From: Felis catus
Lineage: Eukaryota
Assembly: GCF_018350175.1 (NCBI RefSeq)
Contig: NC_058380.1
Location: forward strand, 91,760,001-91,824,000
Direction: 5' to 3'
DNA length: 64,000 bases
The notes under the pieces were generated by a model, which worked only from the letters and a program-made list of their open reading frames with translations, ran no database searches and was not told the DNA's origin. The translations under genes were made by a program, and so were the position numbers. This document shows, one piece after another, positions 19,911 to 64,000 of this stretch. Each line of letters begins with the position of its first letter. Within the stretch, counting starts at the first letter, position 1.

Positions 19911-19940
19911 GTCTGGCGGGTCACCGGGAGCCAGCGGGCG

Positions 19941-20175
19941 AGCCTGCGCAGGACCCGGCAGAGGGGGCGGGGCCGAACAGAGGGGCGGGCCTGCGCAGGA
20001 CGGCGGAGAGGGCGGGGCCGAACAGAAGGGCGGGGCCTGCGCCGGACCCGGCGGAGGGGGCGGGGCCGTACAGAGGGGCGGGCCTGCGCAGGACGGCGGA
20101 GAGGGCGGGGCCGAACAGAAGGGCGGGCCTGCGCAGGACATGCCGAGGGGGCGGGAGCGAGAAGAGGGGCGGGGC
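19941..20175. repeat. About 47-bp GC-box tandem repeat (about 4.5 units) directly upstream of the TMEM141 start codon
   Basis: Unit cctgcgcaggac…gggcggggccgaacaga(a/g)gggcggg with about two Sp1 GC boxes each, alternating A/B variants. Confidence 0.85.
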
Positions 20176-20629
20176 CTGTGTCGGAAGGTGGGGGGGGTGT
20201 CTAGGGTCCTGTGAGAAGGTGGGGAAGGGTGGGGGGTGATGGTGGGTAGTCTGGGCGATGGGACTCAGGTGGCCTTTGAAGTAGAAGGGGAGTGAGGCTG
20301 GGTCCTGGCCAGGTCTTCTGGGGGAGATTGACCATCAGTTTAGGTCGCCGGTCAGAACGTTGAAGTCCCAGCTGGCACAGGGACCTGGGAATGGACAGAT
20401 TCCCTGGGCTATTGGGTCCTGTGTGACATGTGGGCAGGTCTAGCTTACCTGTATGCCCCAGCCACGGTGGAGAAGCAAAGCTACCGCCTGGCCTGAGGAT
20501 GAGGCCAGGCCTGGGCTGTTTTCCTGACTCGGGGGCAGTGCCTGTCCAGTGGCCAAGGCTGAGCATTCTGGCTGAGGCAAGACCCCTCCTTTGAGGCTCC
20601 GGCCTTTTACTAAATGGCCATGTTGACCT

Positions 20630-25224: not shown

Positions 25225-26027
25225 TTGGAGCTCTGGACTTGGGGCCTGGGGACTTGGGCCTGGGGACTTGGGGTGTGGGGATTTGGGGCCTGGGGACTTG
25301 GGGGCATGGGGACTTGGGGGCTTGGGGACTTGGGGACTTGGGGCCTGGGGACTTGAGGCCTGGGGACTTGGGGTGTGGGGACTTGGGGCCTGGGGACTTG
25401 GGGTATGGGGACTTGGGGCCTGGGGACTTGGGGTCTTGGGGACTTGGGGGCTTGGGGACTTGGGGCCTGGGGACTTGAGGCCTGGGGACTTGGGGTGTGG
25501 GGACTTGGGGCCTGGGGACTTGGGGGCATGGGGACTTGGGGCCTGGGGACTTGGGGTGTGGGGACTTAGGGGCTTGGGGACTTGAGGCCTGGGGACTTGG
25601 GGCCTGGGGACTTGGGGTGTGGTGATTTGGGGCCTGGGGACTTGGGGGCATGGGGACTTGGGGCATGGGGACTTGGGGTGTGGGGACTTGGGGGCTTGGG
25701 GACTTGGGGCATGGGGACTTGGGGTGTGGGGACTTGGCTTGGGGACTTGGGGCATGGGGACTTGGGGTGTGGGGATTTGGGGCCTGGGGACTTGGGGGCT
25801 TGGGGACTTGGGGGCATGTGGACTTGGGGCATGGGGACTTGGGGTGTGGGGACTTGGGGGCCTGGGGACTTGGAGCTCTGGAGTTGGGGCCTGGGGACTT
25901 GGGGACGTGGGGACTTGGAGCTCTGGACTTGGGGCCTGGGGACTTGGAGCTCTGGAGTTGGGGCTGGGGACTTGGGGACTTGGGTACTTGGAGCTCTGGA
26001 CTTGGGGCGTGGGGACTTGGGGACTTG
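25225..26027. repeat. G-rich minisatellite (about 15-bp TGGGGACTTGGGG-cc/tg/ca units)
   Basis: About 800 nt of repeated GGGG runs; it produces the spurious PSPQ/WGLG ORFs in the track. Confidence 0.95.
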
Positions 26028-27783
26028 GCACTCCTTTGGCCTTCCTGTCCCCCAACCCAAGGGGAGTGTTTTTGAGGAAGATCTTGGAGCTTGTGCGTGT
26101 GTGTTTTAAACAAGGTATGATTTACGTACGGTAGGACTCACTTTCTGGGGACAGATCTGCGGGTTTTGACAGATGCAGGCACATGGCCACCAGGGTCCGG
26201 GCTCCAAAAGTGTCTGCGTGCCCCTCTGCCCTCCGCCGCCCCACCACCCCTGTTCTTGCCACCAGAGCAGTTTCTGTCCCCAGGGACGTGCCTAGTCTGG
26301 CAGGTCCGTGGCCTTTCCGGAGAGGCTTCTCTCACTCAGCAAACGCATCTGGGATTTGTCTAAGCTCTTTACCCGAGCGGATGGTTTGGGCTTTTCATTC
26401 GCTCCCGGCTCGGAGGGACCCCACCCGTCCACTTACCCACTGAAGACATTTGCTTGTCTCCGCTTTTTACTGGTTGTGAATAGAGCCCTCCGAACATCCG
26501 CGTGCGGGTTCATTTCTCTTGCGTCAGTGCCGAGGTGCGCGACTGACTGCCTGGGACAGGACCGTCTCCCTTTGTGAGAATCTGCCACACCGTTTTCCAG
26601 GGTGGCGCCTGGCTTTTCCCGCCCAGCGCCCGCAGGAGGGTGGATTTGCAGGCGGCCCTGCCACCTGAGGGCCGCGCAGCGTGTCTCGTGTCTCGGAGCG
26701 GCTCCCCCTTCCTGTCCCCTGACTGGTGGGCGTGTTTTCACGTGCTTACTTTCCTCCTGATGTTTTCTTTGGTGAAGTGGTTTTTCAAATCTTTTGCCTG
26801 TTTTTTTTTTTTTTTTTCTAACTTGGATTGTTTGTTTTTCTTATCATTGCGTCTGTCTCGAGTTCTTTATACATTCAGGATTTAAGCCCTTTATCAGACG
26901 TGTGTTTTGAAAATATTTTCATGGGAAGGCTTTTCCTGCGTTGTGCCCAGTGACTCTGGGGCCTGGCCGCACTCGGAAGCACCCCCCTCCCACCTCAGCG
27001 GGGGGAACCCTTCCACTCTGAAGCACTCAGTAGTGTCGGCCCTCCCTGGGACCCCTGCCCCCGATCAGAGGTGTCGGGGCGCTGTGCCCCCGAGGACACA
27101 GGGTGATCGCAAGTAGTGTCTCTGGGTGCTCTGCGTGTGTGCACACAAGAGGTCACTGGGGAGCCCCCACCAGCCCATGGCGCCTCCTTGGCGATGCTCA
27201 CGCCTACAGGCTTATGCAACCCTTGATAAGGTGGTTGTGATACCATAATCCACCCAGACTGGCGGCTCAGCTCCACCCTCCAGACGGGCTGCTGGAGGCC
27301 CAGTTGGTGGCTGGGTAGGGGGCGGTGGGGTCTAGAGTGAGGGGCACCCAGGCCTCCGACGTCCCCTCTGTCACAGCTGGCCCGGGCAGGCTCTGCTCCT
27401 AGGTGAGGCCCCGAGGCCTGGCCGATGGCGACTCTGTGGCAGTGTGGGGAGGAGGGATTGAGGACTTCGGGGGCCCAGACCTTGAGTGGGACCCTCTGGC
27501 TGGAGCAACCCCAAGGGGGTCCCGAGCCCCAGCCAGGCTGGAGGTGGATGGAGGCCAGGATGAGTGTCTCTGCTTCGTCCTCGGCGACTGCCTGGCAGGC
27601 CTGGGGCACAGATCAGGGTCAGAAGAGGGGAGAGCTCACCTCTCTGGGGCCCTCCAGGAAATGACCCCTGGGGCGGGGGCGGGGGCGGGGGGGGTGCTCT
27701 TGAGTGATCGTGCCAGACAATGGACAAAGGGGACTGGGGTTTCCAGAGCCAAGTGCCTTCTGAGCCCAGCTGGTGGGCCGGGC

Positions 27784-27829: not shown

Positions 27830-29985
27830 ATGGCGGCCAAGTGCATCCTCCTGGGCTGCGTCCTGGTGCTGCTCTGGGTGTCCGTGGCTTGGGCCGAGGT
27901 CCTGGTGCAGCCCGATTTTGATGCCAAGAAGGTAACAGAGGCCGCTGCACTGTGCCACAGGTGGGGTGGGGGCTGAGCCCACGGCAACGCTCCACCACGG
28001 GGTGACGGCTGCCGCTGCTGGCCACGGGTGCCTGCTCTGTGCCTTGGGCCTGCAAACCTGGGGGTCGTCTCTCCATTTCATCCCGAAACGACCCCGTGGG
28101 GATAATTACTGAGCCATTTCACAGCCGGGGGAAGTGAGGCCACGCGACCCGCCCAGGTAGGTGGCAGAACAGGGGCTCGGACCAAGAGACAGGTGCTCAG
28201 AGACCCCCGGTCGCGTGGTTCCCGACAAGCCCGTGTGGCCACGTGGCTTTGGGGCCCTGGGGCCCAGGGCAAGGGGGTCCGGCCTGGCGGCCACCGAGCT
28301 TCCTTACAGTTCTCAGGCCGCTGGTACGTGGTGTCCATGGTCTCCGACTGCAAGGTCTTCCTGGGCAAGAAGGGCCATCTGCTGATGTCCTCCAGGGTCG
28401 TCAAGGCCACGGCAGGCGGCAACCTCAGCGTCCACATGGAGTTCCCCCGGTGAGTGCGGTGGGCCGGGGTGGGGGGAATGGGGGCGAGCCGGGCCGGCGG
28501 CCGGGAGTGAACACCGGGCCTGCACCCCCAGGGCTGACGGCTGCAACCAGGCGGACGCCGAGTACCTGAGGGTGGGCTCCCAGGGCCACTTCAGAGTCCC
28601 AGGTGGGTCCTGCCCCGCCCGCCTTCAGGGGCCCCTGACGCGGCTTCTCCGTGGGGTGACCCGGACCACCCCCCGGCGCCATCTCCTGACCGCGCCCTCG
28701 CCCTCCGCCCTCCGCCCCTCCCTGGGGCCCAGACGCGGAGGCCGGTGGGGGTGGGGGTCGGCGCCCGGGCCCCGAGCACTTGGCCACGGCTGGCCAGCTT
28801 ACCTCCTCTGCAGCCCTGGGCTACCTGGATGTGCGGGTCGTGGACACCGACTACAGCTCCTTCGCCGTGGTCTACATCTACAAGGAGCTGGAGGGGGCGC
28901 TCAGCACCATGGTGCAGCTGTACAGTGAGGCCCCCCCCCCCCCCGCCTCTCCTCCCCACCCAGGCCCCGCCTTCCCCCCCCCCCCCGGCCCTGCCCCTTC
29001 GGGACCGGCCTCCCCTCAGCCATCTCCCCCAAGTCCAAGCCGAGAAGGACCGGGGGTGGGGTGGTGGGCCCCCACAGCTCTTCGGATGGGTTGAGGTTGG
29101 CTCGCGGGGCCTCTGGGGCCCAGGCACCCGGGCGGAAGCTCGGGTAACTCTCTGGCCCCCTTTGGGTGGGGACCCCCCTCCCCCTCCCCCTCCCCTGCCC
29201 GGCCCCACTGCCTGAGAGCTAAGTGGGGGCTGAGATCCTGTTTCGCTTTAATTTCTGAGGGCCTTGGCAGAGCGGGCCAGGGGCTCCCCAAGGTGCAGAG
29301 GTTGGGGTGAGGGCTGGAGGCTGGTTTCGGGAGCCCGAGGGATGTGGGGTCCAGGGGGATGTGACCCTGGGAAACAGCCAGGCCATCCCAGTCTCCCAGA
29401 CGCTCTTGTGCGAATTAGGAAAGGACACCCCTCTGGGTGGCTTCCAGTCCCCACTGGGGTCTCAGCCAGGCAGGCACTTTTGTGCAGTGCACAACCTGCG
29501 CAATCTTGGGTGGCGAACCTGCTCCCAACTCTCAAGGAAGGGACCTCTGTCTCCCCTGACCCCCACCTCCGTGAGCCACAGAGCTCACAGTGGCCCTGCT
29601 CTGCCCCAGGCCGGACCCAGGAAGCAAGTCCCCAAGCTGTGAAGGCCTTCAAGGACTTCTACCCCACGGTGGGGCTCCCCGATGACATGGTGGTCATGCT
29701 GCCCAAGTCAGGTACACGGGCCAGGGTCTACGCAGTCCCCAGCCCCCAGCCCCCTTCCCTGCTAGGTTGTCAGGCCCTCGCCCTCCTGCCCGCAGCCCCT
29801 CTTTCCCCACAACACACGCTGCAGAAGAGGTTTCAAGCAGCTGGGAAGGGAGAGTCTGTTTGGGGGCCCGGGGCCCCAGGGGTTAGGGGCCGCAGGAGGC
29901 CGTGGGCAGTCCCGGCTGGCCCAGCCTCACCACTGTCTTCCTTCCCACAGACACATGCTCCTCTGGGGACAAAGAGGCTCCCTGA
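27830..29985 (+). CDS. LCN15: Lipocalin-15, 6 coding exons, 186 aa, intact
   Basis: Exons 27830-27931, 28310-28449, 28532-28602, 28814-28924, 29610-29711, 29951-29985 (561 nt). Signal peptide, then EVLVQPDFDAKK|FSGRWYVVSMVSDC (GxW), DTDYSSFAVVY, SRTQEASPQA, DTCSSGDKEAP*. A probable non-coding exon 7 starts at 31586 (donor after 30017). Confidence 0.95.
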
Positions 29986-33723: not shown

Positions 33724-33729
33724 TATAAA
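33724..33729 (+). promoter_or_regulatory. TATA box of the LCN8 locus
   Basis: TATAAA 43 nt upstream of the mutated start codon, similar to the LCN15 spacing. Confidence 0.65.
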
Positions 33730-33766
33730 CCCAGGTGCTGGGGCAGCAGAGGCTCCATGAGCGGCG

Positions 33767-35672
33767 ATAGACACGGGGCTGCTGAGTGTCATCCTGGGCA
33801 CTGTCCTAGTGCGGGTGGAGATGGCCACGCCGGACCTCAATCTACACAAGGTGGCTCTTCTGTCTTACGTGGACAGGTCGGGCAGGGAGGGGCCTGCGTG
33901 TCCGCTCCGCCGGCCCCGCCTCCGTCCCTCCAGCCCCCAGCCGACGCCACAGCAGCCACCCCGGGGGCCCCGGGGCCCACCCAGGTTGCTGAGGGCACGA
34001 GCCTCTCCTGGAGACGGGGTGTGAGAGCAAGGACCCAGGGACCGGCAGGGCCAGAGCCCTCCCTGAGCGTTTCCTGTGGGCAGGCCGGCTGGCCCTGCGG
34101 GGTCTCCGGGGCCCGGGGCTCGGCGTGGTCACCTCCTGCTCCCGGATCGGTGGGGTCGCCCGCACCCTCCATGGCGCCACACCCCGTGGCGCCCGGAAGA
34201 GGCTTTCCCAGCGTGGGGCCTTTGGTTCCCGTCTAGATGCTTCTTCGCCAGTCTGTGTTGGCTGCTGAGTCAGGAGCACACCAGAAGGCACAGAGATGAC
34301 AGACGCTGGGGACACGGATTCTTTTCTCTTGCAAAACGATCAGTTTCTGAGTTTCAGATGGAAGTTCTGGGCTCCGGGCGGGTGCCCGGCCTGCCCCAGG
34401 CCCTCCTGGGTGTGGATCTGCTGCTGGAGCCCTTTCTGAAGACGCATTCCCCTCTCCGCACCCCTGTGACGGGCCCGGCAGAAGGAACGCAGGCTGGCCT
34501 TTCCCTCATGGGCCCTTTGCTCCCTTCCAGCTCAGGAAATTGTGAGACAGAAGAAATAGTGGGCTCAGAAATAGATGTTTTGGGGAGATCCTGCTTTTCC
34601 TGGTAAGAACCGCTGCCCTGTTGTCACCGTTACCACCCCCTCGCCCTGCACGCCAGCTCTCCTCGGCCTTGCCGTTTCCTGCGCTGTTCCTCATGCTGTT
34701 CCCTGTGCTCCTCCTCATGCCCCAGACCCTCCCATTCTCTCAGCACAAACTGGGTCATCGTTCAAGGCCTGGGTCCCCCCGGCCCTCTGCCTGGTGTTAC
34801 TGGAGGGTCTGGTGCTGGGCAGGGACAGGATGGAGTCAGACCTCGCCCAACCCGGTGCACGCGGGCTCTCCTCCCCCCGCCCCCCAGGCCACAGGGAGAT
34901 CCACGTGATAGACACGGACTACGAGCAGGACGCTATTCAGAGGGTGTCCCTGCACTGGCAGGGCCAGGATTTCCACATGCTCAAATACTTTAGTAAGCGC
35001 ACCCCGTGGTGGGGGCCGGCCTCGCTCCCGTGTCCCGGGGTCGGCCCAGCCCAGCCCCCTGGTGTCCCCACAGCTCGGAGCCTCGAGGACGAGTACGGAC
35101 CAGGCTTCTGGAGGTTCCGGGAGTTGACAGCTGATGTAGGGCTGTACCTGGTGGCCTGGCACGGTGAGCCCCAGGTCTTCCGGGCGGGGGTTGGGCTGGG
35201 GACCCCGAGGGTGGGGTCCGGGGGCCAGTCCCACAGCACCTCACGCTCCTCTGTCCCACAGGGAGGTGTGCCAAGCTCCTGAAGGAGGTGAGCCTCGCCC
35301 CCCGCTGCGCCGAGCCCCCAGGCTGAGTCTCCCGGCCTGACAGGGGCCCTGGGTCATTCTGGATTCACGCTGCCAGATGGGGACCCTGAAGGCTGGGGGA
35401 CTGAGGACAGGGCTGGGAGAGGGAAGGGGAGAGGCGGAGCCCGTATGTCCCACTCGGGTGGGGACACAGACCCCGTGTCTCAGGTTCTCACTGTGCCGGC
35501 CCATCCCCTGCCTGAGCTCCGAGAGGTGGGGACTATCACCCTGCTTTGCAGGTAGAGAAACTGAGGCCCAGGGAGGCTGCTCACAGTCATGCAGCTAAGA
35601 CACGGGCTCCCACCTGTGGCCCCAACCACTTCCCTGAGGCCCTGCCCTTCTGTGTCTCAGGAGCTGATCTAG
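33767..35672 (+). pseudogene. LCN8: Epididymal lipocalin-8, apparently disabled
   Basis: Exon 1 (33767-33850) starts ATA in Kozak context gcgATAg. No exon-2 sequence (xGFWREVxVASD) seen in 33851-34530. Exon 3 (34531-34602) is 72 nt instead of 71 (SGNCETEEIVGSEIDVLGR, then a frameshift before AFP). Exons 4-7 (34888-34992, 35074-35163, 35262-35287, 35661-35672) are open: HREIHVIDTDYEQ…RSLEDEYGPGFWRFRELTAD…GRCAKLLKE ELI*. AATAAA at 35760-35765. Confidence 0.85.
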
Positions 35673-36939
35673 AGGATCCCCTGACCCCAGGCCAGCATGG
35701 TCCGAGCCCCCGCCCGCCTGGCCTGCCCTGGCCCCAGGAGGCGGCTCGCACCCACTCCGAATAAACCCCATGCCAAACCCACTGCCCTGAGTGTCTTTCT
35801 TGGGGAGGCGGGCCTGGGGGGTGACAGGTGGGTGCAGTGGGTGTGTGTCCCATGACTTCCCTGAAGCAGCAGCAAAGCTAAGGGTTGCATGTTTGTTCAC
35901 CGTGAACGGTGGCGCGTGTGAACCACTCAGGTCCCGTCCCTGGCTGGACCTTTGCCCAGACAGGCCTGGGCTGGGGGGCCACCTCTGGGCAGGCTGGCCC
36001 CCCGTCTGTCCCGTGTTTCCTTCCCTGTGGGGCCCGGGGGCCACACAGCTCAGACGCAGGGTGACAGCCCCCGGAACCTCCCCCCTTCCCGTCCTGAGGG
36101 TCTCACCCGGCCCTGCCCTGCTTGGGGCCCACGAGCCAGGCTGCCCGGGTACGTGGGCCCCGTAACCATCCTCCCACCACCGTCCCACTCCCAGAGAGCC
36201 TGAGCGGCCCCGAGCCGGGCATCCTTGAGCTGAGCTGCTGGTTAAGTCTCTCAGATGAAAGGGGACCACACTGCATTTCTGCCTACATTCTCCCATGGCT
36301 CCCTCTCGCCCCAAAGTCAGATCCCACAGGCATGCAGTCCAAAGTCCTCCAGTCGAGGCCGCTCTTCTGTCCACCGGCTGGCTTCCTCCCACCCTCCCCT
36401 GCATGGTCAGCTCAGCCCTTTCAGTGTCCGGGTCCCCTCATGCACGCTGTCACCCCATGTCCTACACTGACTGATCGCCCCACTTCCTTTCCACCAGCGG
36501 GGGCTGAGACCACAGGGCAGACAGGGTGTCCTGGTCAGGGCAGAGAAAGTGGGGAAGGTCTCAGCCCAGGATGACCAAGGCTCACAGGGAGCAGCTGCCT
36601 CATGGGTGAGGCCAAGCAGTGCTGGGGGGCTGGTGGGGACCGGCCCAGCCCCAGCAGAAACCGCCCCCGCTCAGGCGTCCGGCACCCTCCGCCAAGGCCT
36701 GCCTGGAAGGGAGGCCTGCCCGAGGCGGGGGCCTGCCCGGGACCTGCCGGACCGAATCCCGAGCCAGGCTCCCGACAGACCCATGTTGCTCAAAGCTGCC
36801 CCTGACAGGTTAGAGGGGACAACTGGGACTTTCCACGCATCCGTCCGCCCGAAGCTCGCAGTGCTAGGTGGTCCGCGTGCCGGTGGGCTCACCGGCTCGG
36901 GCAGCCGCCACAAGCTCCACGGGCCTGGAGGGGGGGCGG

Positions 36940-37275
36940 CGGGGCTCGGGGGAGCAATGCGGCACAAGAGTTTATGTCTCACGCATCTGGAAGTTGGAAG
37001 CCCGAGACCTGGGTGCTGATGGGTCGGTCTCTGCTGAGAGCCCTCTTCCGGCCTGGAGCCCGTGGGCTTCCGGCTGTGCCCTCGCCAGGCCCCTGCCCCA
37101 CACGCCCCGGAGAGACCTCTGTGTCTTGCCTCCCTCCTCTCAGAAAGGCGCCAGTCCTACCCTCACGACCTCCCCCCACCCCGTCACCCCCTCAGAGGCC
37201 CCGTCTCCAGGCACAGCCACAGTGAGGATTAAGGCTTCAACCGTTGCATTTCTGGGGGCACGATTCAGACCCTAA
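36940..37275. mobile_element. MaLR LTR (MLT1-like)
   Basis: gagtttatgtctcacgcatctggaagttggaagcccgagacc…tctccaggcacagccacagtgaggattaaggcttcaac…gggggcacgattcag. Confidence 0.65.
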
Positions 37276-37421
37276 CGAAAGCCAGCGGGATTCAGAGGCT
37301 GACTCTGGGTCCAGGGCCTCCGCACTGCGTCCTAAGTGCACGCGCTGCTGGACGTACGAGGAAACAGAAAAGGACGGGCTGAGCTGCACACGACGAACAG
37401 GAGCGCTGCTAAATGTGACCC

Positions 37422-37625
37422 GGGGGCGCCTGGGCGGCTCGGTTGGTTGAGCATCTGACCGGCTCAGGTCACCATCTCACCGTTCGTGAGTTCGAGCCCC
37501 GCGTCGGGCTCTGTGCTGACAGCTCGGAGCCTGGAGCCTGCTTCGGGGTCTGTGTCTCCCTCTCTCTCTCTGCTCTCCCTGTTCACGCTCTGTCTTTCAT
37601 TAAAAAAAAAAAAAAAAAACAAAAG
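37422..37625 (+). mobile_element. CanSINE
   Basis: ggggcgcctgggcggctcggttggttgagc…gagttcgagccccgcgtcgggctctg…poly-A. Confidence 0.9.
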
Positions 37626-38305
37626 TGAGCCGGAGAAGATCCGTGGACGGAGCGAGAAGACAAGTGGAGAGGGGCCTGGTACGGACACAAAGGGACGAAA
37701 GGAAGGCAGGCTCAAGGGACTAACTCGCCGACGAGACAGCAGAATTAAACAGCTGGCTAACGAACCCAGAACGAGCCAGCCAACGGGGCCGGGGGCAGCG
37801 CGACAGGGGCCATCAGGAGAGCCAGGCGGGGACGCCAGGGCCGCATGGCGCAGCAGCCGAGACGAAAGCTTGCCCGGACGGGCGTAGCGGACCGCAGGGG
37901 GCACGAGCCAGTGGCCGTGAGCCTGGGACACACCGGCACAGACTGTCCAAGCTGAGGAGCAGAGAATGACCGCCAGCGGCCGGGGTCGGGCGTGTGAAGT
38001 ACTCCCAGGAAGAGAAGGGAGCGAAAATTGGGCAGAAAAAGATTTGAAGAAATAGAGGCGAAGATATGCCCACTTGACCGAACACATCCCGGGCGCAGGG
38101 AAGCCAGAGCAGGATGAAAGAAACCACCCCCAGGGACATCGTGCTCAAGTGGACGCAGCGGCTTGGGGACGACGTTCACGGAGCCGCAGAGAAAAGGCGC
38201 TTCGCAGCCAGAGGCCGTGACAGCTGGCTTCTCGTGGCACGGGACGCAGGCACATCTCTGAAACCAACTCGGAGTTCTGGGAAAGAAAGCTATGCTGTTT
38301 AAATG

Positions 38306-38503
38306 TATTTTTAAAATTTATTCATTTATTCTTGGGGTGGGGGGCACAAGCAGGGGAGGGGCGGAAAGAGAGGGAGGGAGAGAACCCCAAGCTGACTCGG
38401 CGCAGAGCCCGACGCGGGGCGCAAACCCACGAACGGTGTGACATGATGACCTGAGCCGAAATCACGAGTCGGATGCTTAGCCGACTGAGCCCCCGGGGAC
38501 CCC
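38306..38503 (-). mobile_element. CanSINE (diverged)
   Basis: …atgacctgagccgaaatcacgagtcggatgcttagccgactgagcc. Confidence 0.8.
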
Positions 38504-39294
38504 AATAAAGCTACGCTTCGAGAAATCAACGTGGAGGGAATTTGTCCCTCGTTCACCTGCAGTACAATAAATTACTGCTAGCGTGTTCCTCAGGCAGAGG
38601 GAAATTGCAGGCGACGCCCCCCGAGGTCCGCGGGGAGGACGGCGGCGCAGGGGATGCCGGGAGAGCGCGCTCAGCGGGAACAGAGGGTCAGTGACCTCCC
38701 GTGATCGCAAGACTTCGCTTCTCCACCACGTGTTTCTTGCCTGTCAGTCCGGACCCAGGAACGCTCCCTTCTTTCCTCTAGAGGCGCAAACCCGTCCAGA
38801 TCCTTCCAGTGGGGGCTCCTCCCGGACAGCCGCTGAGTCCTTTTGACACACTTCCCTGATTCCTCAAACACGTGTTTACTGGAAACACTCCGAGTCCTTT
38901 CCTGTTGTCCGTGACCCCACCCTGGAGTGATCCCCCCACGGAGCCGGCTCCTTCTTGCAGAGAGCGATGTTGAGAGAGCAAGATCCGAGAGCCAGGTGCC
39001 CCCCGCTCCCTCCTCACTGGGCTGGCATGGGCTTGGCCTCGGCAGAGAGATGCCCCCCGCTTTCCAACCCTGAGAAGACCGCCACCCTCTGACGCATCCC
39101 GGAGCGCACAGAAAGCCGTTTCGGGCTCGCTCCCCCAAACCGCCGCGAAGGACGAGCCTCAGAAAATCCAGAACTCAGGGTTTGTTTGGGGTTCCTTTAC
39201 TCTTTAGCCTGAGAATATACAGAAAAAATCAGGGCTGATTCCGCTGACCCCGTTCGGGTGTTATGTCATTCGTCTATTACACAGTTTTATTCCT

Positions 39295-39512
39295 TTTTAA
39301 AAATTTTAAATGTTTGTTTACGTTTGACAGAGAGAGCCAGTAGAGTGTGAGATGGGGAGGGGCAGAGAGAGAGGGAGACACAGAATCCGAAGCCGGCTCC
39401 GGGATCCAAGCCGTCAGCGCAGAGCCCCATGCGGGGCTCGAACCCACAAACCACGAGATCATGACCTGAGCCGAAGTCGGACGCTCAACTGACGGAGCCT
39501 CCCAGGCGCCCC
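39295..39512 (-). mobile_element. CanSINE
   Basis: Reverse-complement body ending …cccaggcgcccc. Confidence 0.9.
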
Positions 39513-39699
39513 TGTGCAGTTGAATCCCACTCGTTTACTTTTGATGCAATAGGTTACCCAGATCCCAAAGTCAAAGCGACACCAAGGAGGCATGCGGGGG
39601 GGGGGGGGGTCTAACTTCCTCCCCGGCCCTACCTACCCTACCTGCCCCTGGGGGGGACCGCACTCCTTAGACTCCGATTTCTCCCTTCTGGGTTTCTTC

Positions 39700-41550
39700 T
39701 GGCAGAAGGAGGCAGACACACACGTTCTGAGTCTCACCCGCCCGCTTCGCGTGCCCTTCGGCACTTTGTTCTTTCACTTGACGGTACACCCGCGTGTCAC
39801 GTCACCCGACACCAGTTCACGGAGACTTCCCACTGCGTGCGTCGCCGCGTAGGGCTCCGCTGCGGGCACACCGTCTTTGCGCCAACCAAGCTCTCGTGCG
39901 TGGCCATTTAGGTGGCTTCCAACGGCTTTCCGTTAGAAACAGTGCTTTGGTGAGTGAGCACCGCGCACATCCATTTTTTGTGTCCTGGCAGGTGATTCTT
40001 TAGGGTAAGTTCCTGAGCGGGGTTCTAGATCAGAAGATAAATGGGTTTTGTTAGATGTCGCCACGTTTCCCTGTATAGGAATCGTACCCTTTTGCGGTCT
40101 GAAGAGCCAAACGTGGCTTGCTCGGGGCCCCACGGCCTGGCCAGGGAGCGTGTGTTGGGGCCAACCTCTTCGATTTTTCGCCAGGTGATAGGTGATAAAC
40201 AGTTATCGGTGTTGTTTTAATTTGCGCGTCTCCCATGGTGAATGAGAATGGAGACCGTCTCCATTCACCGGGGCTGCGCCCTTACGAAGGACCACAGCCC
40301 TAAACGTCAGAGGTGGATTCTGTCCCAGCTCTGGAGGCTGGAGTTTGGAACCCAGATGGCTGGGTTGTGTCCTCCTGAGGCCTCTCTCATGGCCATCTCC
40401 TCCCCGTGTCCCCACACGGTCTCCCCTGTGTGGTGTCTGTGTCTTAATCTCTTCTCATAAGGACCCAGTTATGTTTAACCTGTATGACCTCGTTTTGATT
40501 TAATCCCTCGTCAAAGGCTCCATCTCTAAATAGTGCTGCATTCTGAGGTGTTGGGGTCAGGACTTAAGCAGAGAAATTGGGGGGGGGGACACAATTCATA
40601 GCAAACATCTTTTTGTATGTTTAGGCATCGCTTTAAGTTTTTTTGCATGAATTATCTGGGTATGTCATTTGTCCATTTTTCTGATGAGTTTTTGGCCCTT
40701 TTTTCTTCAATTTTTAACTATTTATTTTTGAGAGAGAGAAAGAGCGAGTAGGGGAGTGGCAGAGAGAGAGAGAGGGAGAGAGAGAGTCCCAAGCAGGCTT
40801 CACGCTGCCAGTGCAGAGCCCAATGTGGGGCTTGAACTCAGGAACTGTGAGATCCTGACCTGAGCTGAAGTCGGACACTTAACTGACTGAGCCACTCAGG
40901 TGCCTTTTTTCTTTAATTTTTAAAAGTTCCTTATAGAGCATGGCTATTAGCCCTTGCATGTGATATATGTTGGACATACTTTCTCCAGATCTGTCATTCA
41001 TCTTTTGACTTTGTTTGTGGCTTATTTTTACTATAAAAAAGTTTAAAAAATACAGACGGGTTATTTATCCATACTTTTTTTTTAAATTACATCTGGATTT
41101 TGATGCAAGTTAGTGTGGCCTATGGGTTTGTAATGGCTTGATTTGCCTCAGCTGCACGGCGTTTCCCAGAATTCCCAGAAGGCGACAGCCTTACAGGGCT
41201 TATGGAATGGGCTCCCACAGCGACATGGGGTCAAACTCCTGCCCTAAATCCCTTATTTGTGAATTCATATTCCTCCTGGCGGTTCTGCTTTCAGGAGTGA
41301 ACTGATGCAATTAGAAAGCCTTTTCCTACATCCATGTAATAGGGAAATTCACCAATGATTTCATTCATTACTCGTGTGGTTCTATTTCCACATTTAGTGT
41401 CAGATCTCTGATCCATTTGGTGTTTACTCTCGCGCACGAGGCGAATATGTTTCATTTTAATCTTCTTCCAGATAGATATTCAGTTGCCCTGACAGCATTT
41501 ATTTACAAAAACCGATTTTTTCCTGCGATTTGAGACATCTCCTTTGCAGC
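39700..41550 (-). mobile_element. Old L1 (L1M-type) 3' fragments interrupted by MLT1 (about 40270-40600) and a CanSINE
   Basis: T-rich L1-antisense phrases such as ggccatttaggtggcttccaa, gttgttttaatttgc, tctctgatccatttgg, ttccagatagatattcagttg…cagcatttattt. Confidence 0.6.
40710..40904 (-). mobile_element. CanSINE
   Basis: …gagctgaagtcggacacttaactgactgagccactcaggtgcc. Confidence 0.85.
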
Positions 41551-44500
41551 ACAACGTGTCCAATCTGGCTCAGGAGAGCCTACTGTATAATATTTTTGCC
41601 CTAAATCTGCATTCCGTAAGATCATTTCGGGCTACCCAGATGTCTTTTCATCTCTACCATGTTTTATGGTTTCCAGCTACATTACAAGAATTTAAAGAAC
41701 ATAGTGTAATTTCAGATGTGGCTCTTATCTTGTTAAGCCAGGTGTTCGTAGCCGTTCTCACAATCTGTGTGGTTCCAACGTGTGTGTCGGCCCCCAGCAT
41801 TCCTGTCGGCATCCTGACCCCCAACATGATGGCGCTGGGAGGTGGGGTTTTGGAAGGTGACAAGGTCATGGGGGTGGAGTGCCCATGAGGGGAATCGGTG
41901 CAGCCGGAGCCCCCCACGTCCCCCCGCCGTGAGGACACCGAGACGCCCTTGTCCATCCTGCAGGCACAGCTGACTGGAACACCCGGCGTCCAGAACTGGG
42001 AGAGATCAGTGTCTGTTGCGCGTAAGCCAGCCGGTGTGCGCTTTTGTGATGCCAGCCCCGGGGCACTAAGGGAGGCCGCCTGGGGGTCCCAATGCAGGAA
42101 GCGTCCGTGGGGCTTCTGTTACCTCATTCTTCTGCTGTGTTTCTCTCCGTTCACCTTAGTCTCCCCGAATGTTTTGTCAGGAATCTCCATGTGAAAAAAC
42201 AGCAAATAGGATTACTCTGAAGAGTAGGGTGATATTTTTGTCCTTGTGAGTCATCTCCAGCTGCGAGGCATCGGAGAAGCTGGCAGTCAGGGGCCATCCT
42301 GATCCACGTTCGAGGCCCGACACCTCCCGGGCTCCGGGGCAGTGGGAGCTTAGCTGCATGTTTGTGCCGGGGCTGGCTGGTTTACCTGTGTCCAACTTCC
42401 CCACGGGGCTCACCAAGGGCCGGGTGGTGGCTCATCAGGGGTCAGTCCTTAGACCTGGCAAGACACGTGGCTTTATCTTTCCTTCACCTTCCGCATCTCG
42501 CTTGTTTTTGTGTTGTTAGAACCCTTGGAAGCCGACTGGCAAAGCCATTGGAAATGTAGTCTGCCCATTCCACCCCCACCCCCCCGGGGAAGGATCCTGC
42601 CGGCTGCCTCCCCTTGGATTTCGGGGGCTCCGGCGGATCCCGCCAAGCCCTCTTTCCTCTGCTCCCAGGTAGGGGCTCAGATGACCCAGAGGTGAGAAAC
42701 CCAGGCCCACAGAGAACTCTCAGGGAAACTTGGGGATGTGCAGCTCCTGGCCCAGGTCATGGAGTACAGAGGTGGGGGGCAGCAGGCCAAGCCTGGCCGG
42801 AGAGTGGGCGAGTCCAGACAGGTGGAGCGGAGGGGCAGAAGGAACAGGACATTCCGGGCTGGCTGCTGACTGTGTGTGGGGGCAGGAGGCCAAGGCCAGC
42901 AGAGCAGAATAACGGGTGGTCAGGAGGGAGTGGGAGGTTTTTTTTTTTTTTTTCCTATTTTTAATGATTGAGACAAAAGATCTGAAGTGCAGCTTCTAGA
43001 ACTGTTTGTGCCTTCCCTTGGTCTTGACTTTGGCCTGCTGCCAGCCACGGTTAAAGACCAGGGTCTCTGGCCTTCCCAGACTGAGCAAGGGAGAGCGTTG
43101 AATCCCCAGTGGTGTCAGTGGTTTGACCGGGGTTAGGATGCCCATTCTGGAACCGCCCAACAGAAGGAAGCAGACAGAAGCAGGGATCGGCACGGCAGTG
43201 CTGACGCTCCCCGGGGCCCAATCCCCATTCTCCAGCGCATCGGGGCAGGGCACAGGGGCCGCCACTGAATAATAATGCCACCCCCTCGGGAAATGTCACC
43301 ACCTTGCAAGGAGACAGGCCAGCGTGGTGTCTTGGTGGTCAGTGGCCGCCCACAGTGACCCACGCAGAGACGTTTGAACGGGTTTACACGGGCCGGAGGG
43401 ACTGCGCAGCCCCGGGCCCCGCGGCAGGTGTGCTGGTGCACAGACTTCCGGAAGATGGGGAGCGTCCTGCTCACTGCTCTTCTGACGTCGGTCTCAGCGC
43501 CTTGCGCCCAGGCTGTGTGCCTGGGAAGGCTGGACCCGAGGCAGGTAACGGCCCATCCGTTGGTGCCAGCGCTGGCCTCGAGCCCTGTCGGTCCTAGGGG
43601 CCCAGGCCCCTCCTGTGGGGCCACAGTCTCTGGGTTACCCTCCCGGTGCCGGCCCAGACCGGCAGCGGCTACGGGGGGACGGGTCAGCCTGAGTCAGGGG
43701 CCCTGGACTCCCAGACAGAGAGGACGCCTCAAGGGGCTGGGGGACCCGGCCCCCCTCACCTTCTCCTCTCCTCCCAGCTTCTGGGGTCCTGGTACATTCT
43801 CGCCGTGGCCTCCGGTGAGAAGGGCTTTGCAGTGGAGAAGGCCACGAAGGACATCGAGGGTGTCGTGGTGACCCTTACAGCAGAAAACAATCTGAAAATG
43901 CTGTCCTCCAGACACAGGTGAGCGACCTGTGCTCTGTGGGCCTGTGTCCCCGGAGAGCAGTTCTGGTGGGCCTCTGGGTGGGGTCATGGTGGATGCGGGA
44001 GGCCTCTCGGGGCAAGGCCCCCCCTCAGCTGCCGCCTAAACCGGGCTCGCGCGTGGTGTCTCAGAGCCGCTGGTAACCTTCCTCCCATACCCGCGTCTGC
44101 CTTCGGGAGCCGTGGGGCCCTGGGTCCCGCTGGGACGGGCCTGGCCGTGGGACGAGCGAGGACAGAGGAGGTCTGGGGTCCGATGGCGGCCCCGCTATGT
44201 TGGGTGAGCACACACGGTCACATGCGCCACGGTGTGGGCCACGAAGCCACGTGGCTGGCTGTGTCCCGGTGAGGCTGGCGGAATCAGACATCCAAATCCA
44301 GAAGCCAGGCGTCTGGAGAGCCTCAGGCTCTGTGAAAAGCCACCGGTGACCTAAGGGCCACGGGGGTGGACGTAAAGGCCACGGGGGTGGCCGCGGGGCT
44401 GGGACGCCATTCTGGTGTCCGCTCTCTGGTGTGACTGGTTAGCAGCGCCCCCTGGTGCTGTGTCACCTGCACCTCTGGGGACCGCGGCCAGACGCTGGTT

Positions 44501-44560
44501 TGGAACGAGTATGGTGCCGAGCCCCCCTCCCCACCAGGACTGCAAGTGGGTCCTCTTACA

Positions 44561-44596
44561 TTGAATTGAATTGAATTGAATTGAATTGAATTGAAG
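44561..44596. repeat. (TTGAA)n pentanucleotide microsatellite
   Basis: Seven perfect units. Confidence 0.9.
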
Positions 44597-44835
44597 TCAT
44601 CTGTTGGCCTTCGGATAGGAAGTGCATTTGCATGGCTCAGAAGTCAGTCACCGAAGGTACTCAGAGCGGGTCCTTCCCACCTGCCCAGCCAGCCTGTCCC
44701 CTCCCTGCAGGTGACCCATGCTTGTGATTCGTGGCGGCTCCTCAGACACGGGCGGCCACACGCCAGCACACGTGTGTCACCGAGCCACGCACGCCGGGAA
44801 CCTCTCCGTATCTGTCCACACAGCCTCTGCTCTCT

Positions 44836-45084
44836 TTAATTTAATTTAATTTAATTTTTAATTTTTATTTTTTTAAGTTTATTTATTTTTGAGACAGATA
44901 GAGACAGGGAGAGACAGAGCATGAATGGTGAAGGGGCAGAGAGAGGGAGACACAGAATCTGAAACAGGCTCCAGGCTCCGAGCTGTCAGCACAGAGCCCG
45001 ACGCGGGGCTCGAGCCCACGAACCGCGAGATCATGACCTGGGCCGAAGTCGGACGCTTCACCGACCGAGCCACCCAGGCGCCCC
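44836..45084 (-). mobile_element. CanSINE with TSD in LCN6 intron 2
   Basis: TSD cctctgctctcttt at about 44824 and 45086; (TTAAT)n tail. Confidence 0.9.
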
Positions 45085-45138
45085 ACCTCTGCTCTCTTTG
45101 AGAACATTTCACCTTTTATTCTCTTCTGTCTTTACTGA

Positions 45139-45352
45139 ATTTTTTTTTTTAACATTTATTTATTTTTGAGACAGAGAGAGACAGAGCATGAACGGGGGAG
45201 GGGCAGAGAGAGAGGGAGACACAGAATCGGAAGCAGGCTCCAGGCTCTGAGCCATCAGCCCAGAGCCCGACGCGGGGCTCGAACTCCCAGACCGCGAGAT
45301 CGTGACCTGGCTGAAGTCGGACGCTTAACCGACTGCGCCACCCAGGCGCCCC
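45139..45352 (-). mobile_element. Young CanSINE in LCN6 intron 2
   Basis: Near-consensus SINEC_Fc; tgaattttt on both sides. Confidence 0.9.
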
Positions 45353-45359
45353 TGAATTT

Positions 45360-45900
45360 TTAAAAATTGTAGTAAGATAAATGCAGCACAGAAACGGCCG
45401 TCTTAACCACTTTCAAGGACGCAGTTCGGGGGCTTCAGGCGCACTCACACTGTCGTGCAGCCGTCCCCCCCCACGCCGTCCGTCCCCAGAACGTGTTCGT
45501 CTTCCCAGACTGGACTCGGTCCCGTTACACGTGGACCCTCCCCTCCCCAGCCCCACCCTCCCGCTCTCCGTGTCCGTGGCTCCGACTCCTCCAGGGCCTC
45601 CGGTGAGCGTCCACTCCTACAGGGCGTGTCCCCCTGTGACGGGCTGACGTCACTCAGCACGGCGTCTTCTGGGTTCGCCCAGTTGTAGCAAGTGCCGCGA
45701 TTCCCCTCCCTTTTGAGGCTGACGTTCCGTGGTGTGGCCGGAGCACGTGGCAGCTCCCGCCTCTTGGTTTTGTAAATCACGCTGCCGTGAACGTGGGTGT
45801 GTAAGTCTCCCTTCAGATCCTGCTTTCGGTTCTGGGCGCGCACAGCGGCGGGACCGCGGGGTCACTTGGCGATTCCATGTCACATTTTCGGAGGCGCTCT
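45360..45900 (-). mobile_element. Old L1 3' end (L1MA/MB-like), GC-shifted
   Basis: cttaaccactttcaaggacgcagttc…cactcacactgtcgtgcagccgtc…gtcactcagcacggcgtcttctgggttcgcccagttgtagca follows the L1M 3'UTR antisense pattern from memory. Confidence 0.65.
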
Positions 45901-45906
45901 GCTCTG

Positions 45907-46136
45907 TTTTTTTTTAAATATATGAAATTTATTGTCAGATTGGTTTCCATACAACACCCAGTGCTCATCCCAGCAGGTGCCCTCCTCGATACCCCTCACC
46001 CACCCTCCCCTCCCTCCCACCCCCCCATCAGCCCTCAGTTTGTTCTCAGTTTTTGAGATTCTCTTATGCTTTGGCCCTCTCCCACTCTAACCTCTTTTTT
46101 TTTTCCTTCCCCTCCCCCATGGGTTCCTGTTAAGGT
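45907..46136 (-). mobile_element. 5'-truncated carnivore/felid L1 3' end with TSD
   Basis: Poly-T, then aatttattgtcagattggtttccatacaacacccagtgctcatccc…cctcagtttgttctcag; TSD tctgctctgtttt at about 45898 and 46137. Confidence 0.8.
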
Positions 46137-46739
46137 TCTGCTCTGTTTTACAGCTGCGTATTGGTCCAGCAGGCTTTGTGCCAGCGCCCTGCTGCTGGGC
46201 AGACGGGGGTCTCCAATCTTTTGCAGTTGGAAACACACTTTGGGGAGTGGGCCCAGGGGTCTACCCGAAGGATACATCTCTCGGAGTCCCCGTGTCTCCA
46301 CATCACACATGGCTGGTCCCCTGAACTGGCGCCTGCCCCGGGCATTCCCTTACTCTTTGTTCTTTGCCATCTGATGGGCAGCAGATGGCCCTGTGTCAGC
46401 TTTTATGCATCTTCTGTAAGGACAAAGGCCAGGGGCATCCTGGGACATGTCAACGTGCCTTTTGTGCTTCCTCCCCAATACGGGGCTCAAACTCACAACC
46501 CTGAGATCAAGACCTGAGCCGAGATCAAGAGTCAGACGCTTAACCAACTGAGTCACCCAGGCGCCCCTGCCTGTTCGTATCTTTGGCATATTTTTCTGTT
46601 AGGTGTGTTTTTACCGGTTTGTAAGAACCCTTGAGTGTTCGGGATATTAGCCTCTCATCTGTGATAAAAATTAGTTGCAAATATATTTCCCAGTTTGTAA
46701 TTTTTCTTATAACATTGAGACGGGTTGTTTCTGTTTGTT

Positions 46740-46972
46740 TTATTTTTTTAATTTTAATTTTTTAAAGTTTATCTACTTATTTTGAGAGGGAGAGAAATTG
46801 TGAGTGGGGAGGGCCAGAGAGAGAGAGAGAGGGAGAGAGAGAGAATCCCAAGTAGGTTCCACGCTGTCAGCACAGAGCCTGACACGGGGCTCGATCCCAC
46901 AAACCATGAGATCGTGACCTGAGCTGAAATCTGGAGTGGACCCTTAACCGCCTGAGCCCCCCCGGCCGCCCC
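46740..46972 (-). mobile_element. CanSINE (a partial SINEC_b-like copy lies at 46480-46567)
   Basis: …gagatcgtgacctgagctgaaatctggagtggacccttaaccgcctgagcc. Confidence 0.8.
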
Positions 46973-49390
46973 AAGACCAACTGCCTGTCTGTTGTGTCCG
47001 TTCACTTTAGGGACTGAGTGGCCCCTTGTGATGCTGGGGCTCCTCACCCAAAATTGCAGAGGGCCCAGCGTCTGTCTGAGTCTCATTTTGTGCCCTTTGT
47101 GCCCCCACCACCCTGGGGAGGGAGCTGATCTGCACTTGGCTCTCTTGTGGCTCATTCCCGAGCCAGGCTGGATTCGCTGGAGAGCGAGGTTCCTGGGTAA
47201 CGGGGGCCGTCAGAGGAAGCCAGGCTCCCCTCTGCGACACGCTGGCGGCAGGCCGGGCCCCGGCGGCAGGACCCTTATGTCCTCTGGTCCCGACTCTGGA
47301 CCCTGAGCTGAGGACGGACGGTCTCTTTTCAGGGCTGGAGAGGTGTGACGTGGGCACGGTGTTGCTGCGGAGACAGAACTCTGGATGGGTGTTTGAGAAC
47401 CCCTGTAAGGTGACAGCCTCCGCGGTGTCCCTCGGGGTGCGGAGCAGCATGGGGATGGGCTCGCTCGCCCGGCCAGCACTGTGGGAAGGGGAGGGGATCG
47501 GTCACCCCCAGACTCCCTCTGTGGTATGCAGGGGGGTGGCCCTCTGCCCCCGTGGGGACAGGACCGGGGGAGTGTGACCCCGGATGAGCTGGAACAGGCC
47601 CTCGCCAGCTGGCCATCCCTCACCGGGGACCCGGGGACCACGGGGTTCTGGGGCTCTGAGCTTGCCGGGGGGCCTCTCGTGTCTCCCAGCCCTGGGCGTG
47701 TCAGACTGCCGGGTGCTGGGCACCGACTTCAGTGACTACGCCATCGTCTTCACCCAGCTGGAGTTCAAGGACGAGGCCTTCAGCACCGGGAGCTATACAG
47801 TAAGTGGAGGAGACCCCGGGCCCGCCCACAAACTCCCTGCCGGCCACAGCCACGCTGTGCGGGAAGCACATCGTCCCAGGGTCCGGGGCCAGAGAGAGGG
47901 GCCCGCCGCCTGGGCTGGCCCCTGTGCCCCCAGGGACCCGGTGCCTCGCCATGGCCCTCTCTGCCTGGGGCCTCATCCCTGCACTCCCCCTGCTGCAAGA
48001 GGGGCAGCTGGGGCGGGGGGCACAGGTGTGAAGGTCCCCTCCTGCCCCACAGGTCGCACGGAGCTGGCCAGCCAGGAGGCCGTGTGCCTCTTCACCAGGT
48101 GGAGCAGGGGCCTGGGCTTCCTGTCCCAGCAGCCGGCCACGCTGCAGCGGGACTGTGAGTGTCCCCCGGGGCCGCCCCCCACGCCCAAGGGTCCCCCGGG
48201 GCCGCCCCCATGCCCAAGAACCCGCTCACTTCCGCTGGTCTCGGGGAGCCTCCCGGCCTCAGTGAGTCAGGCAAGACTAGGGAGGGTGAGTTCTTCAAGG
48301 AGTCACCTGCTCCCTGCCCGAAGTCAGGCCGACAGGGGAGGCCCCGTCTCGGGTGAGGCTGTGGGCCCGACCTCACGACTCCCCTTGTCCCCCCAGTCAC
48401 CTGTGCGCACAAGGCCTTCCAGGTAAGCTGGCTTCCCAGCATCACCCCGTGTCCTACACCCCAGTGCTCTGCAGCCGTGAGGGGCCGGGGACCCGGGTGG
48501 AGGCAGACTCCCCTCGAACCTGGGGTCCTCCAGTGCTCTTCCTGGTTTTCAGTGAATGCTTCGCCTCCAGTGGGGACAGTGCCCACCGTGTCCGGGCGAG
48601 GCCAGCCAGGCGCTGGCAACCTGCTCAGCCACCCGGGTGCTGGGTGCTGGGTGCTGGGTGCTGGGTGCTGGGCAGGTGCTCCCAGGGACTCTTGCTGCGT
48701 TTCCAAATAAAGCAATTCCACAAACCGCTGTAGTTACCTCTCACTCGTGTGCTGGGCTGGGCTCGGTGTTGAGGGCGGACAGAGATGGACGGGGAGCTGC
48801 TCTCGTGGGGCTCGGGCCACACAGGGAGAGGATAGGGTGCGGTGGGCACACCCTGGCTGAACCACACGGCAGAGAGCCAGCTCGGGGGCGAGAGGGCCGG
48901 CCTGCACTTGTGTCCCTCGGCAGAGTCCCTCTGGGTGGGGGGACCCGCACACATGGGTCTTGGCTGGGGAGTAGGGGCTGGGCCGGAGGCAGCCGCTCCC
49001 CAGGGAGGGATCACACAGCCCCGGGCCGATGGGAGGGTTGTCTGCTTGAGTGAGAGCAGGCCTGCAGTTCGAGTTCGGACAGGGTGCTGGGCCGACGAGG
49101 TGGGCACTGGTGCCCACCGGGGTGCTGGGCTGGGGCACCTCGGAGTCCGGGGCAGGGCTCTGGGGCAAGGCCAGGGGCCCAGGATTGCAGAGGCCTGGCC
49201 TGTGGGTCCTCCTGTGGTCTGGTGGGGCCCTGCCGGAGGTCCTGGCAGAAGCTGGGGTGGGGGCTGCCCATCCCTCACGGCGAGGTGGGGTGCACGCCAG
49301 GAAGGCGGCAGGCGGGCACATACAGGAGAGCTGCACGCACACGCACACGCACCCCATGTGCCTGTGCACACACACCGGCTGCCCCCTCTG

Positions 49391-50275
49391 TCAGCACCTG
49401 CTCAGGACAGACCCCCCGTCAGCACCTGCTCAGGACAGACCCCCCGTCAGCACCTGCTCAGGGCAGACCCCCTGTCAGCACCTGCTCAGGACAGACCCCC
49501 CGGCAGCACCTGCTCAGGACAGACCCCCCGTCAGCACCTGTTCAGGGCAGACCCCCCCGTCAGCACCTGCTCAGGGCAGACCCCCCTTCAGCACCTGCTC
49601 AGGACAGACCCCCCGTCAGCACCTGCTCAGGACAGACCCCCGTCAGCACCTGCTCAGGGCAGACCCCCCTTCAGCACCTGCTCAGGACAGACCCCCCGTC
49701 AGCACCTGCTCAGGGCAGACCCCCCATCAGCACCTGCTCAGGACAGACCCCCCCCCCTCCGTCAGCACCTGCTCAGGACAGACCCCCCCCCGTCAGCACC
49801 TGCTCAGGACAGACCCCCCTTCAGCACCTGCTCAGGACAGACCCCCCGGCAGCACCTGCTCAGGACAGACCCCCCGTCAGCACCTGTTCAGGGCAGACCC
49901 CCCCGTCAGCACCTGCTCAGGGCAGACCCCCCTTCAGCACCTGCTCAGGACAGACCCCCCGTCAGCACCTGCTCAGGACAGACCCCCGTCAGCACCTGCT
50001 CAGGGCAGACCCCCCTTCAGCACCTGCTCAGGACAGACCCCCCGTCAGCACCTGCTCAGGGCAGACCCCCCATCAGCACCTGCTCAGGACAGACCCCCCC
50101 CCCTCCGTCAGCACCTGCTCAGGACAGACCCCCCCCCGTCAGCACCTGCTCAGGACAGACCCCCCTTCAGCACCTGCTCAGGACAGACCCCCCCGTCAGC
50201 ATCTGCTCAGGGCAGACCCCCCCTCAGCACCTGCTCAGGGCAGACCCCCCCGTCAGCACCTGCTCAGGGCGACCC
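49391..50275. repeat. About 28-bp minisatellite, 31 units, upstream of LCN10
   Basis: Unit TCAGCACCTGCTCAGG(A/G)CAGA(C)5-10(G/T). An internal 12-unit (346-bp) block is present twice. Confidence 0.95.
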
Positions 50276-50645
50276 TGCAGTCAGGTCCTCCTTCTCACAC
50301 GCAGATAACCTTGTGAAGTGACTCATAGTGACACTAGCTGGCTGTTGTCTCTCTTCCGGGGGTGGGGAGCTAGTGTGAGAGGCCCAGGGCTCCCACTGTG
50401 AGGAGGGACGGCTCCAGGGGACACGTGGTGACCTGAGGTCTGGGGGGAGTGACCTCGGGAACACGATGGTTTTGTCTGACGCCTCCCAGGCAGGCGGCAC
50501 CGACCAGGCTGAGCACCTGGGCCGGCCCTCTGTGCCCGGGGCAGGAGAAGGCCCGCAGCCCCCCGGCCTCCCCATCGGCCCACCCCAGGCCGGCTCAAGG
50601 CTCCGGGTTGGTTGGACGGCCACGGCAGGGTCGGTGGGTGGGGAG

Positions 50646-53849
<3,204 letters not shown>

Positions 53850-62569: not shown

Positions 62570-62871
62570 TTTTAAACATTTAACATGGTACAAGTCCCTG
62601 ACCTTAACTACGCTTCCTCTGCCGGGCGCCATCACCACCATCTAGTTCCAGAACATCTGCATCACCCCAAGCAGAAAACCAGTCCCCGCCGAGGGGTCAG
62701 GCGCTGGCTCTTGCCGACCCCCCGTGCTCCCCGGCAACCAGCGACGTGGCTCCCGTCACTATTTCTTTACTTATCATTATGAGTTTTTCACACGGGTGAG
62801 ATCCTACAGCGTGTGGTATTTTCTGCCTGGTTTCTGCCACTTAGTATAACGTCTTCTAGTTCACCTACGTC
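62570..62871 (-). mobile_element. Old L1 3' fragment, truncated near the duplication junction
   Basis: catcaccaccatctagttccagaacat…catcaccccaa…tttctgccacttagtataacgtcttctagttcacc. Confidence 0.65.
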
Positions 62872-62902
62872 GGAGGTGCCTGGGAGGCTCAGTTGCTTAG
62901 GA

Positions 62903-64000
<1,098 letters not shown>

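Follow-up and report, generated by a model that had tools for sequence, protein, structure and literature searches.

The LCN8 locus and its lesions

The window, which is the whole 64,000-nucleotide stretch of domestic cat DNA analysed here, contains a lipocalin cluster in the order LCN15–LCN8–LCN6–LCN10 (Table 1), which we take to be the gene order in other mammals. Both sequence and position identify the locus under study as cat LCN8. Exons 1 and 3 to 7 can be aligned with felid and other mammalian LCN8, with tblastn matches to mammalian LCN8 at 65–79% (intron gap counted) and 76–79% identity between exon 1 and residues 1–29 of felid LCN8. With exons 4 and 5 as the query, 55 proteins were found among 56 candidates, and every named match was LCN8, the top one being the Felis catus RefSeq model P0001 on a contig of 95,154,158 nt. 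The AG acceptors and GT donors of the LCN8 exons are present, and five introns are kept alongside the disabling lesions, which rules out a processed pseudogene. The TDY motif (SCR2) is retained in exon 4 as DTDY, with Y110D and L113Q flanking it. TATA boxes similar to that of LCN8 also lie upstream of LCN15 and LCN10.

Table 1 Features of the lipocalin cluster in the window
Feature	Position	Strand	Remarks
LCN15	27830..29985	+	Frame intact; upstream neighbour of LCN8
LCN8 TATA box	33724..33729	+	TATAAA
Upstream ATG, out of LCN8 frame	33757..33759	+	Exon 1>3 splicing from this ATG gives 40 junk residues
LCN8 exon 1 (signal peptide)	33767..33850	+	Start codon is ATA; GT donor intact
Remains of introns 1 and 2	33851..34530	+	680 nt; exon 2 (about 131 nt, GxW motif) absent
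LCN8 exon 3	34531..34602	+	72 nt (+1); premature TGA at 34543–34545 if joined to exon 1
Spurious ORF of P0001/P0004	34575..35163	+	Out-of-frame ATG in exon 3; reads through intron 3 (P0001 also intron 4)
LCN8 exon 4	34888..34992	+	105 nt; TDY motif; Y110D, L113Q, V126M
LCN8 exon 5	35074..35163	+	90 nt; R159W
LCN8 exon 6	35262..35287	+	26 nt
LCN8 exon 7, coding part and stop	35661..35672	+	AATAAA at 35760
LCN6, pseudogene	43455..48422	+	Exon 3 47333–47404 (72 nt), exon 4 47690–47799 (110 nt); in-frame stops
LCN10	50688..53849	+	Frame intact; downstream neighbour

An earlier note on this DNA had described LCN8 as inactivated by start-codon loss, a missing exon 2, and a frameshift in exon 3, and these lesions were all recovered. 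Positions 33767–33769 read ATA in place of the ATG of the signal-peptide exon, while all nine named felid LCN8 models that retain exon 1 start with MDAG. The next in-frame ATG, at 33821, falls at the end of the leader, leaving neither start codon nor signal peptide. The interval between exons 1 and 3 lacks an exon 2, and LCN15, LCN6, and LCN10 do have the 140-nt exon 2 that the note gave as the standard; for LCN8 itself, however, the intact fishing-cat protein P0010 predicts an exon 2 of 131 nt (43 codons plus 2), not 140. Exon 3 is one base longer than the 71 nt both seen in LCN15 and LCN10 and expected from intact LCN8 proteins. The extra base lies at 34589–34592 by comparison with intact LCN8 or in the T run at 34595–34598 by comparison with the in-frame "SCFP" models of leopard, jaguarundi, and fishing cat, its exact site being ambiguous within 34589–34598. 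As the note had also predicted, direct splicing of exon 1 to exon 3 yields ...LHK LRKL*, with the TGA at 34543. Compensation of the exon 2 loss by the exon 3 insertion is excluded, because the stop precedes the insertion and the summed shift is not divisible by three. The LCN8 transcript would end after 14–40 codons or, if exon 3 is skipped from the upstream ATG, encode a leaderless half protein.

Search for exon 2

An HMM built from 64 distinct LCN8 exon-2 peptides, which themselves score 85–105 bits, gave a single domain across the whole window, at −3.6 bits, and the intron had none; as both strands were covered, an inverted or displaced exon 2 inside the window is excluded. No exon 2 appeared among the matches listed when six LCN8 proteins, intact or nearly so, were run in tblastn. 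Of the 8-residue pieces of fishing-cat exon 2, the best matched the intron at 4/8 residues, compared with 4–6 in 30 shuffles. One chance GxW occurs between exons 1 and 3, at 34217, and no exon with the GxW motif (SCR1) was found at the LCN8 locus. In a search for the deletion breakpoints, translated intron pieces of other mammals matched only weakly and at low complexity. The window holds no second LCN8 or other lipocalin remnant that we could find, and Pfam on three window pieces returned nothing useful. In particular, no remnant was found at 35700–43400, between LCN8 and LCN6, the position of Lcn5 in mouse. Some bat and river-dolphin LCN8 models extend into a further lipocalin-like segment.

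Database models of the locus

The RefSeq model P0001 and the UniRef cat model P0004 match the window without a single difference, yet both start out of frame and read through an intron, and the two databases thus still list a dead locus as coding. Against the Pfam lipocalin family (PF00061), P0001 has no match and P0004 scores 15.9 bits with a cut-off of 23. With the stop at 34543 and the database products below cut-off, no open frame spans the whole of PF00061, as one would in a functional kernel lipocalin.

That the locus still yields a useful short protein, as these models imply, is very improbable. In its favour, the locus keeps its TATA box, its poly(A) signal, and the splice sites of six exons; introns 3 and 4 can be read through in frame, and joining exon 1 to exon 4 from the upstream ATG gives the correct frame in exon 4. 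Against this stand the Pfam results, the lack of a signal peptide and of GxW, and a first conserved cysteine that is out of frame; the retained exons, moreover, carry Y110D, L113Q, and R159W.

Conserved residues and the reality of the lesions

Conserved LCN8 columns were defined from 72 of 92 non-felid models, 20 having been dropped for coverage or identity. The window LCN8 has 5/54 of these columns changed versus 15/790 in ten non-felid carnivores (Fisher p 0.007; computed at the protein level with filler masked, on rows that are not independent, and with one dog isoform left out). Eight of ten other felid-type LCN8 models have 4–11 changes, and the lion model P0016 has 0/59. Across the wider non-felid models the median is 2 changes but the maximum 17, so that the count alone is no proof of a pseudogene. 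The pattern nevertheless points to relaxed constraint on the window LCN8.

Assembly or sequencing errors would be a highly improbable source of the lesions. The region is GC-rich (about 65–68%), the extra base may sit in a run of four T, and the lesions are known here from assembled sequence, an assembly that both database cat models may share. However, matching defects occur in other felid models, namely the loss of exon 2 in fishing cat and an exon-3 frameshift in Canada lynx, and five further conserved residues are changed in the window LCN8, damage that is not of the indel kind, while LCN15 and LCN10 read cleanly. In addition, 14 runs from nine studies (one of which may be the source) contain 82–94% of 226 sampled words, a sampling that tests the presence of the stretch rather than of each lesion; two RNA runs of another organism, with small shares of 0.10 and 0.05, carry no weight here. 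The earlier view that three such lesions are unlikely all to be errors thus holds. Judged from its sequence, the LCN8 copy in the window is a real, inactivated pseudogene.

LCN6 and the flanking genes

LCN6 in the window is broken as well. Its exon 3 has an extra G at the acceptor, and the frame is regained at exon 5, with stops in between. The exon-4 break is common to the Iberian lynx, Iriomote cat, and probably tiger models; these three and the window have N55D and L105S in common, and in each the break falls at the STVELYS motif. The neighbours that had been used as a comparison for LCN8 are therefore sound for LCN15 and LCN10, with their intact frames, but LCN6 is not an intact control.

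A recent tandem duplication repeats the LCN10 promoter and exon 1 (49225–51017 versus 62900–64000, 98.8% over 945 nt). Its junction lies near 62870–62900, after a SINE-like head, and the duplicate, with a second ATG at 63671, continues off the window; it represents either a real second LCN10 or a false duplication. A 28-nt minisatellite upstream of LCN10 has about 31 copies at 49390–50275 and seven in the duplicate at 63058–63258. GC-rich minisatellites also lie upstream of LCN15, at 25235–26028 and 19936–20178 (a 15-nt unit in about 53 copies and a 45/93-nt unit). Three SINE-like copies, at 884–1095, 16296–16508, and 45138–45352, one of them inside LCN6 intron 2, are 95–98% alike and thus appear to form a young subfamily.

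A second LCN8 and LCN6 block in felids

Predicted proteins and the sizes of their contigs place LCN8 and LCN6 in two blocks in felids. In the fishing cat, P0009 on a contig of 94,870,271 nt is an LCN8 without exon 2, like the window, and P0010 on a contig of 4,463,871 nt is an intact LCN8 with 0/79 conserved columns changed and a Pfam score of 42.5 bits. An intact fishing-cat LCN6, P0130, lies on a contig whose length is likewise 4,463,871 nt. The LCN6 search, with 56 matches among 85 candidates, also returned leopard cat P0132 on a 159.9-Mb contig and a Felis catus in-frame LCN6, P0131, whose coding sequence is absent from the window. P0131 differs from P0130 at 2/171 residues, whereas the window LCN6 differs from P0130 at 13/168. 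Apparently working paralogs are thus found elsewhere for LCN8 and LCN6 in fishing cat and for LCN6 in cat. The two cheetah LCN8 models are on contigs of 93.0 and 156.4 Mb. We assume that the 95-Mb cat contig is chromosome D4 and that the 156–160-Mb one is probably C2. Four odd residues at the start of exon 3 in P0132 count against the reading preferred below. The LCN10 tandem repeat was rejected as the home of the second block, as it begins past the end of LCN6. Walrus LCN6-like models P0146, P0163, P0173, and P0181 lie on four contigs of differing size, some apparently broken, and hint at a separate LCN6 expansion in walrus.

A false duplication, which would make the second locus an alternative haplotype and the intact form an allele of the broken one, is extremely improbable. 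The intact fishing-cat copies do lie on a small contig of 4.46 Mb, and P0131 has no contig; however, the cheetah and leopard-cat second copies are on contigs of 156–160 Mb, and the sequences cluster by type across species rather than by species. A unitary pseudogene, with no paralog in the lineage, is likewise rejected for felids as a lineage, given a second LCN8 in fishing cat, cheetah, and probably lion. The inactivation of this LCN8 copy thus stands, but not its reading as a simple gene loss. Because a second block lies elsewhere in felids, the window locus is most likely a dead duplicate and no proof that cats lack LCN8.

An intact second LCN8 probably exists in the domestic cat too, although none labelled Felis catus occurs among 55 and 105 cluster representatives. 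That the duplication is real but the domestic cat is left without any working LCN8, its second copy missing or damaged, for example by gene conversion from the dead copy, seems unlikely to us. Besides the missing cat label, this reading draws on the mosaic state of both cheetah LCN8 copies (see below) and on two metagenome ORFs, P0002 and P0003, whose cat-like LCN8 proteins match the window at 91% and 94% identity and have Y110D or R146W. P0003 resembles a mosaic of the window and P0002. The two may derive from other small cats or from a further cat copy; if they were the second copy of the cat, that copy would also be damaged. Such a loss could be tolerated, as single Lcn8 knockout mice are reported to be fertile (PMC10506895, PMC10707520). 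On the other side, the cat retains an intact second LCN6 near-identical to the copy beside intact LCN8 in the fishing cat, whose genus is sister to that of the cat, the P0010 cluster comprises five sequences at 90% or more, and lion P0016 has no conserved column changed. When P0010 was used to scan metagenome contigs, 384 stretches matched, and none was confirmed. The PDB yielded just a weak match, to a quail lipocalin (E 0.33), and AlphaFold modelled P0010 with a mean pLDDT of 50.5, too low for the model to be informative.

Trees and timing

Maximum-likelihood trees were built from short protein alignments of 11 and 16 rows, with odd gene-model filler residues masked. The felid clade has a support of 100 for LCN6 and 98 for LCN8, and within it the decayed-type clade has 90 and 94, respectively, each holding Panthera together with small cats. 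In this sampling, from which hyenas and civets were left out, the decayed-type clades spanning Panthera and small cats place the duplication after the meerkat split and before the felid radiation.

V66G, the change of RFV to RSC, and Y110D are common to models from leopard through cat. Exon 2 is missing from both the cat window and the fishing-cat model and was thus perhaps lost in their common ancestor. Among these models, Canada lynx is the only other with the additional base in exon 3, while leopard, jaguarundi, and fishing cat are in frame; the insertion may therefore have arisen twice in the T run. The start-codon change is known only from cat.

Proposed history

We consider it likely that the LCN8 in the window is the dead original of a gene that was duplicated, together with LCN6, to another chromosome before the felid radiation, after which the original decayed. 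A segment with LCN8 and LCN6 would have been copied in the felid ancestor, as the protein and contig evidence for two loci and the timing from the trees suggest. The changes at conserved residues are consistent with new copies that retained the function, so that selection on the originals lapsed. Decay would then have been stepwise: the shared substitutions and the LCN6 exon-4 frameshift would precede the Panthera split, exon 2 was probably lost in the ancestor of Felis and Prionailurus, and the start codon would have gone in the cat line, an order suggested by the gene models. A transcript from the original should now stop within a few codons or lack the signal peptide and the GxW exon, and would give no secreted lipocalin. 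In the cat, LCN8 is probably produced from the second locus instead.

Cheetah LCN8 and felid sperm

The two cheetah LCN8 models, P0005 and P0056, fit this history less well. Both continue across the exon-3 donor and combine residues of the intact and decayed types. Past the donor they run on as AKNRCPVVT, where the read-through of the window has G, suggesting that the donor GT is lost in both cheetah copies and that a cryptic donor 27 nt on is used. The 93-Mb copy has an intact-type exon 3, the 156-Mb copy has the decayed-type I100T, Y110D, and L113R, and I100T and Y110D occur in both models. Their Pfam scores are 29.9 and 21.4, compared with 42.5 for P0010. The second cheetah LCN8 copy is thus damaged, which counts against the history proposed above. 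Two-way gene conversion, or assembly polishing that mixed the paralogs, could each account for the mosaics. Whether the cheetah is without a working LCN8, as a natural null, is a question on which we lean slightly toward no.

Lcn8-null mice are reported to be fertile, but their sperm are more often abnormal, less motile, and undergo an early acrosome reaction (PMC10707520, citing Wen 2021; PMC8476925). A further study describes Lcn5/6/8/10 quadruple knockout mice as subfertile (PMC10506895), and teratozoospermia is reported in almost all wild felids sampled, worst in cheetahs (PMC8997001). We regard as doubtful the idea that the dead parent kept converting the live copy, poisoning the working LCN8 in some cats and so contributing to felid teratozoospermia, worst in cheetahs. 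If it were true, an LCN8 null would be a named genetic contributor to this condition. The state of the second locus across cats, set against sperm morphology, would be a cheap species-by-species test of the long-standing question why many felids make so many malformed sperm.

More broadly, an apparent gene loss would become a gene move, which changes the reading of cat fertility genes. The loci annotated as LCN8 and LCN6 in the cat appear to be the dead ones, the databases naming the dead copy LCN8 and the live copy "LCN8-like," and studies of expression, variants, or gene loss may target the wrong copy. In a literature search that mostly lacked subscription journals, no account of LCN8 loss, pseudogenization, or duplication in cats or felids was found, although genome-wide gene-loss screens may already list cat LCN8 in their supplementary tables.

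Comparison with known systems

Compared with mammalian LCN8 (epididymal-specific lipocalin-8, EP17, PF00061), the cat window is alike in exons 1 and 3–7 and in its lipocalin neighbours. It differs in that the cat copy is without a start codon and exon 2, has a frameshift and five changed conserved residues, and has a felid paralog elsewhere. PMC6381713 places these lipocalins at human 9q34.3. The single and cluster knockouts of mouse Lcn8 indicate the effect of a loss from which the cat probably escapes through its second locus.

An unprocessed pseudogene can result from duplicative transposition if it is the syntenic parent that decays and the new copy that persists. Such decay of a parent after its duplication is a textbook mechanism, apparently undescribed for LCN8 and LCN6. 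Like other duplicated pseudogenes, the window LCN8 keeps its introns and carries disabling lesions, with an intact paralog on another contig in fishing cat and relaxed constraint in the parent clade. Unlike a typical one, it would have been left behind when two adjacent genes moved together from an otherwise conserved cluster, and the cheetah copies are mosaic.
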